Positions 46,474 through 51,968 of a stretch of DNA of 64,000 bases are shown in pieces. The translations under genes were made by a program, and so were the position numbers. Source of the stretch: Escherichia coli (GTDB lineage Bacteria; Pseudomonadota; Gammaproteobacteria; Enterobacterales; Enterobacteriaceae); NCBI RefSeq assembly GCF_030013595.1, contig NZ_CP122768.1, one strand, 5' to 3'. The notes under the pieces were generated by a model, which saw only the letters and a list, made by a program, of their open reading frames with translations, was not told the DNA's origin and searched no databases. Positions within the stretch are counted from its first letter, which is position 1. Each line of letters opens with the position of its first letter.

Positions 46474-47454
46474 ATGAACGCAATAATATCGCCCGATTAT
46501 TACTATGTTCTTACCGTTGCTGGTCAGTCTAATGCCATGGCGTATGGCGAAGGACTGCCATTACCGGACGGGGAAGATGCGCTTCATCCCAGAATTAAAC
46601 AATTAGCGAGATTTGCGCATACGCATCCCGGAGGCCCGTCATGTCACTTTAACGACATTATTCCACTGACTCACTGCCCACACGATGTTCAGGATATGCA
46701 GGGTTATCACCATCCTCTGGCAACGAATCATCAAACACAGTACGGCACCGTTGGCCAGGCACTGCATATAGCACGGAAATTACTGCCCTTCATTCCTGAT
46801 AATGCAGGGATTCTCATCGTTCCGTGTTGCCGTGGCGGATCGGCTTTTACCGCGGGCAGCGAAGGGACATATTCAGAACGGCACGGAGCCAGCCATGATG
46901 CTTGTCGTTGGGGAACGGATACTCCGCTATACCAGGATTTAGTCAGCAGAACGCGAGTCGCACTGGCAAAAAATCCGCATAACAAATTCCTCGGCGTATG
47001 CTGGATGCAAGGCGAATTTGACTTAATGACCAGTGACTACGCGTCACACCCTCAATACTTTAATCATATGGTTGAAGCCTTTCGTAGGGATCTAAAACAA
47101 TACCATTCTCAGCTTAATAATATTACTGACGCACCGTGGTTTTGCGGCGATACCACCTGGTACTGGAAAGAAAATTTCCCTCATGCGTATGAAGCGATTT
47201 ATGGCAATTATCAAAATAATGTTTTAGCCAATATTATTTTCGTCGACTTCCAGCAACAAGGTGAAAGAGGACTGACGAACGCGCCTGATGAAGATCCGGA
47301 CGATTTAAGCACGGGATATTACGGTTCAGCGTACCGGTCACCGGAGAACTGGACGACGGCACTGCGAAGCAGTCATTTCAGCGCGGCAGCCCGTCGGGGG
47401 ATTATTTCTGACAGGTTTGTAGAAGCAATTTTGCGGTTTTGGCGCGAAAGGTGA
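46474..47454 (+). CDS. nanS: 9-O-acetyl-N-acetylneuraminate esterase NanS
   Basis: 326-aa ORF; synteny in the nanCMS operon. Confidence 0.85.
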   Translation: MNAIISPDYYYVLTVAGQSNAMAYGEGLPLPDGEDALHPRIKQLARFAHTHPGGPSCHFNDIIPLTHCPHDVQDMQGYHHPLATNHQTQYGTVGQALHIARKLLPFIPDNAGILIVPCCRGGSAFTAGSEGTYSERHGASHDACRWGTDTPLYQDLVSRTRVALAKNPHNKFLGVCWMQGEFDLMTSDYASHPQYFNHMVEAFRRDLKQYHSQLNNITDAPWFCGDTTWYWKENFPHAYEAIYGNYQNNVLANIIFVDFQQQGERGLTNAPDEDPDDLSTGYYGSAYRSPENWTTALRSSHFSAAARRGIISDRFVEAILRFWRER

Positions 47455-47608: not shown

Positions 47609-48538
47609 TTGAACAGCAGAAAATTTGCGAGCATGATCGCAATTATTTCACTGCCAGGGATATCAATGGCTTCCAGTAAATCGCTACAGCAGGCAATTGC
47701 CAATATAAAAATCTGGCACAAGGGTGAACAGCGCGCGCCGCATAAGCCATTGTTATTGCTATACGTATTAGCGGGATACCTGAATGGACATCCGCGCCTT
47801 TTCGATTATGGATCGGAAATCTACGAACCTCTGCACAGTTTACTGGAACGTTTTGGGCCACAGCGTTCACAGTACCGACCTGATATGCCGTTCTGGCGAT
47901 TACAAGGCGACGGATTCTGGCAATTACACAATGCCGAGCTTTGCTCAACAGCAGGGAGCAGCCGACAACCACCAGTGAAGGAACTGATTGAATACCACGT
48001 TGCAGGCGGTTTCGATGAACAGCACTACGCCCTGGTAACTGGCAATAAAAAACTCATCAATACTCTGGCGCAACAGATACTCGAAGCGCACTTCACCGAG
48101 AGTATTCAGGAAGAAATTGCTGACGAGCTGGGTTTTGATCTCCAGCAAATCCGTAAACAGCGCGACCCGTTATTTCGCAAAAATGTATTACGCGCTTATA
48201 AATACCAGTGCGCGATATGTGGCTTTAATATGCGCCACGACGACGCCACCGTCGCGCTTGAAGCGGCGCATATAAAATGGAAACAGCACGGCGGTCCTTG
48301 TGAAATTCCTAATGGCCTAGCGCTTTGCGCAATTCACCATAAAGCCTTTGATAAAGGATCGATTGGCCTGGACGAAAATATGCGGGTACTGGTATCAGAT
48401 GCGGTAAACGGCGGAGGGATCGTTGAGAGATTATTCTGGGATTTTGACGGGAAAACTATTGCGTTGCCGCAGGTGCGTAAAAATTACCCTTATGAGGTGT
48501 TTGTTGAGTGGCATCGGAAAGAGGTTTTTAGGGGGTGA
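47609..48538 (+). CDS. HNH-endonuclease domain protein with uncharacterised N-terminal domain (possible type IV restriction-like enzyme)
   Basis: C-terminal HNH signature CAICGF...EAAHIKWKQHGGPCEIPNGLALCAIHHKAFD; N-terminal ~200 residues unassigned. Confidence 0.65.
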   Translation: MNSRKFASMIAIISLPGISMASSKSLQQAIANIKIWHKGEQRAPHKPLLLLYVLAGYLNGHPRLFDYGSEIYEPLHSLLERFGPQRSQYRPDMPFWRLQGDGFWQLHNAELCSTAGSSRQPPVKELIEYHVAGGFDEQHYALVTGNKKLINTLAQQILEAHFTESIQEEIADELGFDLQQIRKQRDPLFRKNVLRAYKYQCAICGFNMRHDDATVALEAAHIKWKQHGGPCEIPNGLALCAIHHKAFDKGSIGLDENMRVLVSDAVNGGGIVERLFWDFDGKTIALPQVRKNYPYEVFVEWHRKEVFRG

Positions 48539-49094
48539 GGTTGATAACTATCGCAGTATGTTCAATATTGCTGACATAATCAGTGCAGGATCTTGCCGCT
48601 AGTTTACAACTCGCCTTCGATAGCGGCGCAAAACGAGTTCTGTTGCCGATATCCTGGGCTATGGATATTTCAACAGTTCCGGCAGAGTTGTTTACCAAGT
48701 TTCAGGTAAGTTTTTACTCATAACCGGTTGATGCGGTTTATAAGGCGCTGGATGTGAATTAACACATTCCTCAGTTTATTTACAAAAGGATTATTCCCAT
48801 TTGATATAATATAAGTGCCAATTTACTTTTTCAATGGAATATATCTCGGCTAAATAACAATAAAACTTATCGCTAATGGATTAAATAAACAATTTTCTAA
48901 TTTATTTCACCACCTTTGATATAGAAATTGATGGTGTTGTCGCTGCCATTGCTTATGGTGATGATAAAATCCACGTTTCTGGATCGGTGCGTAGAAAATC
49001 ATCACTACCTTGATATTTTGATGCGATATGATCATACCGTTCCGTAGTACCAATTTCAACTTCAGGCTAAACCCCAACATTAAAAAATTTAGAG

Positions 49095-49136
49095 TTATTC
49101 ACTGATTATATTATCATTAATATAATCAGTGAATAA
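49095..49136. repeat. Perfect 19-bp inverted repeat with 4-bp spacer
   Basis: TTATTCACTGATTATATTA-TCAT-TAATATAATCAGTGAATAA, checked base by base; lies 116 bp downstream of the 651-aa gene. Confidence 0.8.
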
Positions 49137-49251
49137 CATGGACTATATAATAAATTGCTCTAATCATTTCCCTTACGAATATATGGGCCAAAAGCCCAAG
49201 AATCATAATAAGGGTGATGGACTAATTTTTCATTAAATCGAACACTATAAG

Positions 49252-51207
49252 TTAATTTTTTATATTTTTACGTACAGCATTAATACTGGGCAAAGAGGAA
49301 AGATAATCTATAAACTTATCGATAGTGATTTCCCCTTCGCAACACTCAAACCCATCAATGATATTTTTCGCCATTTTTCCATTTTCATTTGTTTGATATA
49401 TCACTCCAGGTATTCGTTGAAAAAAACTAGATAATGCATATTTGTCCGCTACATATGTATCATCCACATGATATTTCCCACCGAGCATAGTTGTAGTAAC
49501 AATAAGCTTATACACACCTTTGGGTTGCCATGTTGATGGTAGTTCGAATTCTTTAATGATCACATCAAGATGATTAAGATAATGTTCAGAAATTCGATTT
49601 ATTTGTTGAAAATAAGAACGCATAAATTTATTATTATGATCATGTATTAATGAGCTATCTCCAACGATGTTACACACTTGCTGATAGTACTTACCATAAT
49701 ATATTGGTTGACCATTTGATTTTAGTTCTGTAAAAATCAAACAATCATCCAAGAGAATCACGCAATCGCACTGATAATTAGCATGAGCATCAATTGGAGA
49801 AGCTTTAATCCCCGCATCACGAACTTGTTTTATAAATTGTTGTTCATGAAATCGCCCTTTACTTGCTTGAGAAATTTTTTTGGAACCAAATAATGACATT
49901 AGAGAGCGAGTCACTGAGCTATTTGCTATTAATGCAGGCATTAAGAATAAACCGTCCATACAGGGAATAAATGGGCAATCATTAAGATCATGTGATTTTG
50001 AATTGAAGGTAAAATAATCTATCAGTTTTTTTGCTGCATCTGCTGCAATCCCCTTACGTTGAAAGAATGATAACCAACTCTCACGGCTTTTTATGATCAG
50101 CCAGCGCTCCAACTGTAGGGGTATAGGCTTTGTCGATGAAAATCTTTTGCTCATTTCTTCTTTAGATAACTCGACTAAACATTGATAAGCGTGCACCCAA
50201 TTAAATAATGATATATTCCCATATTCTTCATGAAGGTCATCAGGAGACATATTTTCTAACTCGCTTAGATGAAATGAGCTAAAAACGCCATCAGAATTTA
50301 AGTAAGATGGCATATGATCCTTTACCCAACTATTTAGATGAAAATGTTTGTTACTAAATTCATGAACTTCGCTATATAGATGTGACGCTCTCATCATTAG
50401 TCTATTTCTTGCAATCTCATAATCTCGGTATAAACAAAAACTATCAACCTCAAGAGAGTAAATGTTATTATCCAATTTTGTAAATACTGCACTACTTAGT
50501 CTGAAAAAATCTCTTACTCTGCTTAATGAGTCAAAAACATTCCACTCATTAAGGTACCCTCCCATTGAAAGCAAGGTTTGTTTATTCACACAAGAAGTTA
50601 GTTTCAATGGCCCATGAGTCCGTAAATAAGAAAATATTCTTCCGGTGTAATTGGCTACCTCATCAAATGCCCTATCGATAACTCGAAAATATTCGATATC
50701 AGGTTCAGCATGAATATTAATATTTTCAGAAACGATAAATAATGGAAAAATCCTCTTCATTTTTTTAGGATCATTGACCACAACCAAGGATGATAATGAT
50801 GATAAAAACATCTCACAAAACATGATGAGATTAAGTATTAATGCATGTGATTTTTTTGTATTTTTACGCCAAATACCAGCACATTTTGTAGCCGCAAAGA
50901 AAGAATTATTTATATCATGCATAATTTTACATTGACTCTCGAACTCAGAGATTAGTTCAATGTTATCAGGAAATGAGTTTCCTAGCTCATTAATACATTT
51001 TTTGAATGTATTGTTATACTCAACTTCAGTCTGAACTGAAAATCTATTATAATAGATGGAAGATATTCTTAGCACATCCAAGGCGATATCTATACTAATA
51101 TCATCTCTTTTTATGTACTCACAAAAAAAAGAACAAAACTGTTTCGGGTCGTTAGCAAGATTACTAATTCTAGTGGTATCATAAACTTTTTCCATTTTTC
51201 CATACAT
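49252..51207 (-). CDS. Uncharacterised low-GC 651-aa protein at the leuX islet
   Basis: Long ORF in strongly AT-rich DNA immediately 3' of tRNA-Leu (leuX); possible PD-(D/E)xK-like motif (CDCVILLDDCLIFTELK) near residue 480; otherwise no recognisable domain. Confidence 0.7.
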   Translation of the reverse strand: MYGKMEKVYDTTRISNLANDPKQFCSFFCEYIKRDDISIDIALDVLRISSIYYNRFSVQTEVEYNNTFKKCINELGNSFPDNIELISEFESQCKIMHDINNSFFAATKCAGIWRKNTKKSHALILNLIMFCEMFLSSLSSLVVVNDPKKMKRIFPLFIVSENINIHAEPDIEYFRVIDRAFDEVANYTGRIFSYLRTHGPLKLTSCVNKQTLLSMGGYLNEWNVFDSLSRVRDFFRLSSAVFTKLDNNIYSLEVDSFCLYRDYEIARNRLMMRASHLYSEVHEFSNKHFHLNSWVKDHMPSYLNSDGVFSSFHLSELENMSPDDLHEEYGNISLFNWVHAYQCLVELSKEEMSKRFSSTKPIPLQLERWLIIKSRESWLSFFQRKGIAADAAKKLIDYFTFNSKSHDLNDCPFIPCMDGLFLMPALIANSSVTRSLMSLFGSKKISQASKGRFHEQQFIKQVRDAGIKASPIDAHANYQCDCVILLDDCLIFTELKSNGQPIYYGKYYQQVCNIVGDSSLIHDHNNKFMRSYFQQINRISEHYLNHLDVIIKEFELPSTWQPKGVYKLIVTTTMLGGKYHVDDTYVADKYALSSFFQRIPGVIYQTNENGKMAKNIIDGFECCEGEITIDKFIDYLSSLPSINAVRKNIKN

Positions 51208-51883
51208 CCTATTGTCTAAATTACTATAAAACTAGCCACTTAACTAATAATTATAAATTTCATCTTTTACACCTTGCATTTTTATAACCAATGAAATCTA
51301 CAACAAGCAACTGATGGATAATCCGATATTGGTCGCATTTAATGGCATGGTAGCAAAGTTTTCATCACATACCTCCTTTGCACCAGAATAAACGCCAGAG
51401 ATCTGAAATTGCGAGTACACTACAGAAATTGTACTGCCGGTCCCATCAGCATAAAACCATAGTTACACAGGTAATCATCATTATTCGCCAAGATAATAAA
51501 TATTATTCGGTAGAATAGCGTTCTCAGGTGGTCAGTAAAATTGTCTTCAACAAGATGTCTGCGCATCTCGTCTGCTAGCCCTACATAACTGCTCTCGACC
51601 GAAACTATTTATTGAATGTTCACCAAGGTGGCGTGGAGACAAAATGACGTCTTTTGATATTAGCTACCTGAGCCACATGGTCAAAACGTTCAAGTAGCAT
51701 ACCGAAACCACCCTGCCCACGTAATGTGGACGATGCAGCTTCCAGCCAGAGCAAACTTGGGACCATCGACTACAAAATGAAGAATACTGAACTGCTTTTC
51801 TGGCAGGCCTATATACTGCACGGATATGGGTGATTTCAGACACAAAAAAAGCCGCTCTTGAGCGACTCGATTTGCATACGGTG

Positions 51884-51968
51884 TGGTGCCGAAGGCCGGA
51901 CTCGAACCGGCACGTATTTCTACGGTTGATTTTGAATCAACTGCGTCTACCGATTTCGCCACTTCGGC
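51884..51968 (-). tRNA. leuX: tRNA-Leu (anticodon CAA), leuX
   Basis: Reverse complement of 51884..51968 is GCCGAAGTGGCGAAATCGGTAGACGCAGTTGATTCAAAATCAACCGTAGAAATACGTGCCGGTTCGAGTCCGGCCTTCGGCACCA, with wild-type CAA anticodon and encoded CCA end. Confidence 0.95.

Follow-up and report, generated by a model that had tools for sequence, protein, structure and literature searches.

A candidate single-protein anti-phage nuclease of the PD-(D/E)xK superfamily beside leuX in Escherichia coli, carried here as a truncated allele

The gene described here lies on the minus strand of a 64,000-nucleotide (nt) stretch of the Escherichia coli chromosome (contig NZ_CP122768.1 of assembly GCF_030013595.1; hereafter the window), in a small island, or islet, within the order nanC-nanM-nanS, islet, leuX and ahr-yjgR-lptGF. 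By predicted fold and motif, its product is a member of the PD-(D/E)xK superfamily, and we favour, with reasonable rather than high confidence, the view that it is a stand-alone, horizontally acquired nuclease of the NERD branch acting as a single-protein anti-phage sensor and effector. On the best reading of the available evidence, it would represent an undescribed family of a known kind, that of the sensor-plus-nuclease defence proteins. The defence role, the autoinhibition and its triggering, the substrate and the loss of function of the truncated allele found in the window are what we infer from the fold, conservation and genomic context set out below.

Structural modeling placed the protein within the superfamily. 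An AlphaFold model built on an alignment of 137 sequences reached a predicted local distance difference test score (pLDDT) of 93.6 and a predicted template modeling score of 0.92, and it displays the alpha-beta-beta-beta-alpha-beta core characteristic of PD-(D/E)xK enzymes; a model obtained with eight enterobacterial sequences (pLDDT 56) was not used. In residue numbers, the core comprises a helix at 449–464 (bearing E455), strands at 468–472, 480–486 (D481) and 489–496 (E494 and K496), helices at 504–515 and 532–544 (Q535 and R538), and strands at 564–571 and 584–588 (D588), while the C-terminal part of the protein is modeled as a small alpha/beta module. The best matches among structures in the PDB are all restriction-type or defence nucleases, namely Upx, FokI, Hna, McrC, Can2 and Shedu, with each match spanning only the nuclease part of about 100–200 residues that is common to all these enzymes.

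Conservation agrees with the model. Residues 481–496 read DCVILLDDCLIFTELK, corresponding to the pattern D-C-VILLDD-CLIFT-ELK, and the triad of D481, E494 and K496 is present in all 110 full-length relatives, with E455 retained in 97%. The spacing is equally constant, the offset of 13 residues from D to E (12 between them) being kept in 109 of the 110. Further near-invariant positions are D407, D410, P412, G451, Q535, R538 and D588. Taken together, the aligned sequences and the model indicate that the motif is a genuine, selected active site. A preliminary description, made from the DNA letters alone, had pointed to a weak PD-(D/E)xK-like stretch near residue 480 and had proposed structure prediction as a check; the stretch is borne out by the invariant triad, which falls on the expected strands of a confident model holding the nuclease fold, and no homology to a non-defence family, which the same description had named as counter-evidence, was found.

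The assignment to the NERD branch is less sharp at the level of sequence, where the protein is a borderline member of Pfam NERD (PF08378). Among 68 relatives scanned against Pfam, 11 matched this family at E ≤ 0.1 and three at E ≤ 1e-3 (best E, 9e-5), and the E. coli protein itself gave no match to it even at E ≤ 10. The same scan returned weak matches to Mrr_cat (in two relatives), Card1 and Hjc. For the E. coli protein, scans of Pfam, NCBIfam and PHROGs yielded nothing significant, in keeping with the earlier remark that it has no recognizable domain. Sequence searches against the PDB, with the single protein or with the family profile, gave nothing usable, the profile finding no match at E ≤ 10.

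The protein had first been taken for an orphan, a view that did not hold, as it is a member of a broad, unannotated family of about 650–700 amino acids (aa). A word-indexed search recovered relatives in Enterobacterales only (identity: Salmonella 75%, Izhakiella 52%, Xenorhabdus, Pectobacterium, Pantoea 41%). When a profile of the enterobacterial relatives was compared with 1.84 billion cluster representatives, 357 were recovered with E ≤ 1e-3, 184 of them even with E ≤ 1e-10; these 357 members are clusters at 50% identity, and nearly all of them measure 600–730 aa and align from end to end. A Foldseek comparison with AFDB50 likewise revealed full-length structural homologues (TM score 0.7–0.97) in Firmicutes, Proteobacteria and Planctomycetes, including Bacillus, Priestia, Paenibacillus, Listeria, Enterococcus, Streptococcus and Ruminiclostridium, as well as Agrobacterium, Legionella, Brevundimonas, Paracidovorax and one planctomycete. 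UniProt automatically names these relatives "NERD domain-containing protein", and members of the family also occur in many metagenomes. A further word-indexed search with the family profile retrieved the E. coli clade alone, and one with P0113, a member of high GC content, a single metagenomic relative; neither retrieved a Pseudomonas member that might connect the family with ZwsA, a NERD protein discussed below. A phage origin of the family was also considered; it was dropped because the viral fold library BFVD contains no structural match to the protein at E ≤ 1e-3.

The ORF (open reading frame) itself is real, since the probability that a frame of 651 codons stays open by chance in such AT-rich DNA is about 7e-24. 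As the preliminary description had observed, the ORF is poor in GC (0.327, and 0.258 at third codon positions, against 0.478 for the window and 0.52–0.55 for the flanking ahr and yjgR), it lies next to a tRNA hotspot, and its product is rich in Asn, Lys, Ile and Phe; Ser and Leu are abundant too. The description had further taken the protein to have 651 aa, and here it needs correction on two counts, for the window carries a truncated allele and the start codon probably lies four residues further in.

Of 5426 complete E. coli genomes, 339 (about 6%) have the same gene at the same locus, and its carriers at leuX include 536, APEC O1, IHE3034 and NU14. The annotation of the two reference loci examined gives a "hypothetical protein" of 2037 nt and 678 aa (WP_112024742 and WP_000417002). 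In the window, one base has been deleted from a run of seven A residues, so that translation ends at a TAA stop (49252–49254) instead of the ancestral frame end at 49160, and the last 32 residues (KLTYSVRFNEKLVHHPYYDSWAFGPYIRKGND) are lost. These residues are conserved across the enterobacterial relatives, and in the AlphaFold model the lost tail forms a confident beta-hairpin (residues 650–669). Because the deletion removes this terminal hairpin, the copy in the window is probably weakened or inactive. A terminator-like hairpin lies 22 nt past the ancestral stop, not past the stop now used.

The six-A allele is genuine but rare. The exact truncated product of 647 aa is recorded on 18 contigs, and UM146 and APEC E956 are the only two of the 339 complete genomes that match the window over 100 bases around the frameshift site; the other complete genomes among the matches listed have one base more than the window at that site. 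A one-off sequencing error was considered as the source of the frameshift and judged unlikely, because the identical truncated protein occurs on 18 contigs and the allele in two complete genomes. With respect to translation initiation, the true start is probably the second ATG, M5 (51195), which is the start chosen by the Prokaryotic Genome Annotation Pipeline (PGAP) and the position from which all relatives align, whereas M1 is disfavoured because an AGG directly abuts its ATG and leaves no spacing for a ribosome-binding site.

Outside the catalytic core, the protein is dominated by its N-terminal half, the first 320 residues of which are the least conserved stretch of the family. Fast evolution is usual for the sensor domains of immune proteins, and we propose that the N-terminal domain serves as a sensor or regulatory module. 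Between this domain and the core lies a middle region whose predicted succession of helices and strands would be compatible with a winged helix. The segment D407-x2-D410-C-P412 (window positions ~49972–49989, minus strand), located upstream of the core, is conserved at 97–100% in the 110 relatives, as strongly as the triad. In the mechanism that we envisage, the N-terminal region would hold the nuclease inactive or away from its target until it encounters a protein or nucleic acid derived from a phage; the core would then carry out metal-dependent cleavage of nucleic acid of the phage and possibly of the host. The nucleic acid could be DNA or RNA; enzymes of the PD-(D/E)xK superfamily are mostly DNases.

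The non-catalytic domains could also be read differently, as those of a modification-dependent, type IV-like restriction endonuclease that recognize a DNA modification while the core directly cuts the modified DNA of a phage, with neither a phage-protein trigger nor an abortive component. Such an enzyme would suit the weak Mrr_cat matches in two relatives and the immediate neighbour of the gene, itself a modification-dependent (phosphorothioate) HNH enzyme. We consider this unlikely, given that scans with Pfam, NCBIfam and PADLOC detected no modified-base reader domain of type IV enzymes (SRA, SBD, YTH, EVE, DUF3578 or similar) in the 68 members, that the N-terminal domain is all-alpha with generic helical fold matches only, and that the nuclease-fold matches do not extend beyond the common nuclease part.

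Genomic context provides the main argument for the favoured reading, that of an anti-phage sensor-effector. Defence or mobile-element genes accompany at least 8 of the 11 informative loci of relatives, and recurrent siting beside defence genes, at hotspots and on mobile elements was observed. One relative adjoins a type I restriction-modification system and a Cap4 nuclease; another is part of Tn7-like cargo that also holds Gabija, a Schlafen-like protein and a WYL regulator, with TniQ/TnsD adjoining (locus L007, 3821–7860); a third shares an integrase island with genes for a KAP NTPase, Mrr and PIN; and a fourth is found at the end of a Bacillus prophage, past the lysis genes and by a pPIWI_RE Argonaute-like gene (loci L012/L013, 10828–12516). 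Other relatives are found beside AbiEi/AbiEii, beside CTD10/DUF2326, and beside HNH, SNase and a YobI ATPase, the Pectobacterium relative is beside an integrase, and the Ruminiclostridium relative occupies a prophage end with transposases. No neighbour is conserved across the 13 loci. The pPIWI_RE and Gabija loci may be useful for a study of co-occurrence.

Several observations weigh against a role in defence. No experiment on any member of the family was found in the literature, nor did a literature search find any publication on the family. Among the defence models of PADLOC-DB v2.0.0 (2023), none matches the protein, the best being the candidate PDC-M29B at E = 1e-3 over 50 residues (466–515); for ten distant relatives, PADLOC gave only weak matches to the nuclease core (CARF_PDDEXK, viperin-associated NERD and Csx1). 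The neighbourhood evidence comes from a small sample of 12 loci without a background control. Within this sample, the Izhakiella relative is surrounded by housekeeping genes and has no other gene of defence in its vicinity, and the Xenorhabdus neighbourhood is mainly housekeeping, although it includes a lactamase-fold neighbour with a Pfam match to Anti-Pycsar Apyc1 and, more distally, genes of type VI secretion system type. Finally, the frameshifted allele is found on 18 contigs, which means that loss of the tail is tolerated and the gene is dispensable; this is silent for or against defence. As for the stand-alone anti-phage or abortive-infection protein suggested in the preliminary description, the nuclease is upheld, and the defence part draws on context, namely the leuX slot and the loci of relatives, with no PADLOC model behind it.

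The same context bears on a non-defence origin, in which the protein would be a mobile-element nuclease (for maintenance, addiction or homing), a DNA repair enzyme or a decaying passenger, and a pseudogene without function in this strain. This would agree with the frameshift in the window's copy, with an islet that has neither an integrase nor a second copy of the leuX 3' end or att repeat, with the several relatives on prophages, transposons or integrase islands, and with the two relatives that are lone inserts among largely housekeeping genes. We regard it as quite improbable. Both the triad and the architecture of the whole protein have been kept across phyla and 357 clusters, implying purifying selection on an active enzyme; identity to the six-A allele over the site is seen in only two of the 339 complete genomes carrying the gene, the others among the matches listed spanning the extra base; the family has no significant viral structural relative and no conserved tie to one type of element; and its prophage positions are the usual cargo slots past the lysis genes.

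Table 1 Coordinates of the gene, its domains and neighbouring features in the window
Feature	Position	Strand	Details and basis
ORF of the gene, as found in the window	49252–51207	minus	1956 nt; 651 aa from the first ATG, 647 aa from the probable start at 51195
Ancestral gene frame, 678 aa with a run of seven A	49160–51195	minus	Annotation in other E. coli; relatives start at M5
Frameshift site, six A here and seven in two aligned references	49256–49261 (six T on the plus strand)	minus	Alignment
Out-of-frame coding remnant of the lost C-terminal 32 aa	49160–49251	minus	
Terminator-like hairpin (20-bp perfect stem, 4-nt loop, T-rich tail)	49094–49137	minus	
N-terminal all-alpha domain, residues ~5–360	50128–51195	minus	No Pfam match; generic helical fold matches only
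Middle region, residues ~361–446, with D407-x2-D410-C-P412	49870–50127	minus	Model and conservation
PD-(D/E)xK (NERD-type) core, residues ~447–600	49408–49869	minus	Model, fold matches and conservation
Catalytic motif D481-x12-E494-L-K496	49720–49767	minus	Conservation in 110 full-length relatives
tRNA-Leu(CAA) gene leuX, insertion hotspot of the island	51884–51968	minus	676 nt upstream of the ORF
Phosphorothioated-DNA-binding HNH restriction endonuclease	47666–48538	plus	NF045808, 439 bits against a cut-off of 180
brxL remnant (BREX-1 Lon-like protease), last ~59 codons, with an internal stop	48580–48759	plus	

In the window, the gene shares its islet with the phosphorothioate-dependent HNH enzyme (Table 1). 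The TTG start at 47609 given for this enzyme by the ORF finder is probably too far upstream, and PGAP places an ATG start near 47666. An operon of the two genes was considered and rejected: they are convergent, about 620 nt apart and separated by pseudogene remnants, and relatives elsewhere lack this neighbour. Being convergent, the two genes belong to the same defence islet and not to the same operon. The first of the remnants between them matches TIGR02653 over positions 617–675 of 675 (E = 7e-23) and the PADLOC BrxL model at 1e-18; depending on the record, it is labelled a "peptidase" or a "hypothetical" pseudogene. At ~48830–49044 (plus strand), a stretch of about 200 nt shares ~84% identity with the 5' part of a PLD-like gene, which follows an intact brxL at the leuX slot of EC596 and O111 strains. 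The islet of the window has apparently lost BREX and its accessory gene by deletion or replacement.

The leuX slot of EC596 itself holds the phosphorothioate enzyme, a decayed BREX-1 with an intact brxL, the PLD-like gene, AbiEi/AbiEii and an integrase remnant by leuX, and because other defence genes occupy it there, the slot can be described as a defence hotspot with exchangeable cargo. On the other side of the islet, nanS (a sialate O-acetylesterase gene; 46474–47454, plus strand) is intact in the window, whereas the closest matching genomes (L001, L002 and L017) have a truncated copy with an additional HNH endonuclease gene, or a remnant of one, behind it; this side of the islet therefore varies between strains. 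The 676-nt spacer between the gene and leuX (51208–51883) is unannotated, and its conservation exceeds 99% in about 337 E. coli genomes. Neither this leader nor the 3' spacer contains a convincing small ORF or an Rfam family besides the tRNA, and the spacer may be a promoter or leader region, or the remains of an older island end.

A more detailed proposal can be drawn from these observations, which we offer tentatively, rating it somewhat below an even chance. The intact protein of 678 aa would be the founding E. coli member of a single-gene anti-phage system that spans phyla; its new all-alpha N-terminal domain and the invariant DLxDCP module would detect a signal from the phage and set free the NERD nuclease, which possibly acts on RNA in the manner of ZwsA, and at leuX the gene would fill an accessory-effector slot downstream of BREX and phosphorothioate-restriction genes.

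The family has no model in Pfam, NCBIfam or PADLOC, despite its frequency among complete E. coli genomes and its relatives in Bacillus, Listeria, Streptococcus and Legionella. In E. coli the gene is common, and several well-known extraintestinal pathogenic strains are among its carriers; outside this species the family is widespread. Should the intact allele protect against phage, a widespread single-gene system would join the catalogue of defence systems, a large block of proteins named merely "NERD domain-containing" would acquire a function, and a compact sensor-plus-nuclease would become available for studying how an N-terminal domain recognizes infection. The natural six-A allele, in turn, lends itself directly to testing whether the protein depends on its C-terminal hairpin.

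NERD modules recur across defence systems (PMC10952713, PMC12839542), and the family described here has in common with these systems the core fold and the E...D...ExK signature. In the named NERD systems, the module is fused to a helicase, kinase or PLD domain or belongs to a multi-gene system, whereas the present protein is encoded by a single gene and carries an undescribed helical N-terminal domain of 360 aa. Shedu (SduA) and Hna resemble it in joining a PD-(D/E)xK nuclease to variable N-terminal or helicase modules, a logic of variable sensor and conserved nuclease. They differ in that the PADLOC models for Shedu and Hna do not match the protein, which has neither a helicase domain nor DUF4263. 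No evidence was found for membership in Shedu, Hna or the Mrr-type type IV enzymes.

Upx and ZwsA, the latter described below, set an experimental precedent for defence by a single PD-(D/E)xK or NERD protein. Upx is a single-protein defence system in which an autoinhibited nuclease is freed by a phage protein (PMC13099982), the principle that we propose here. In Upx and the present protein, a single polypeptide has large non-catalytic domains that buttress a C-terminal PD-(D/E)xK core, and 205 residues of the two structures superpose, with 13% identity in the aligned part. Upx is about twice as long (1212–1272 aa against 678 aa) and consists of an N-terminal nuclease domain, a regulatory middle domain and a C-terminal nuclease domain, whereas no second nuclease domain is evident in the E. 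coli protein, which is not a member of the Upx family.

ZwsA (Zowangsin) of P. aeruginosa is a stand-alone NERD RNA endonuclease of ~80 kDa that cleaves PP7 and MS2 RNA; its NERD core (E535, D567, E580 and K582) stands between a helical N-terminal part and a small C-terminal RNA-binding domain, and the protein is reported to contain VHS, DUF647 and S4 domains and is sited in defence islands (bioRxiv 10.64898/2026.04.06.716636). The present protein is likewise the product of a single gene, of similar size, with a helical N-terminus, a NERD core, a small C-terminal domain and a defence-island location, and, going by the published description of ZwsA, the ExK motif follows D at an offset of 13 residues in both. 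This similar layout and identical offset speak for an RNA-targeting defence endonuclease like ZwsA, which would cut phage RNA, such as the genomes of single-stranded RNA phages, and not DNA; we assign this alternative a minor chance. The catalytic residues of ZwsA lie ~85 positions further along, and both D567 and K582 (at ~80% of the protein length) fall outside the range of the family, in which the catalytic D is at residues 411–500 and the K at 69–76% of the length. None of the family proteins compared (150 representatives plus the matches of the first search) has E, D, E and K at 535, 567, 580 and 582. The Pfam families VHS, DUF647 and S4 were detected in none of the 68 members at E ≤ 0.1, a weak negative in that the assignments in the preprint are partly structure-based, and the prevalence of DNases in the superfamily also argues against this alternative. 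The N-terminal domain and the family itself are undescribed, and the type of mechanism is likely a familiar one.

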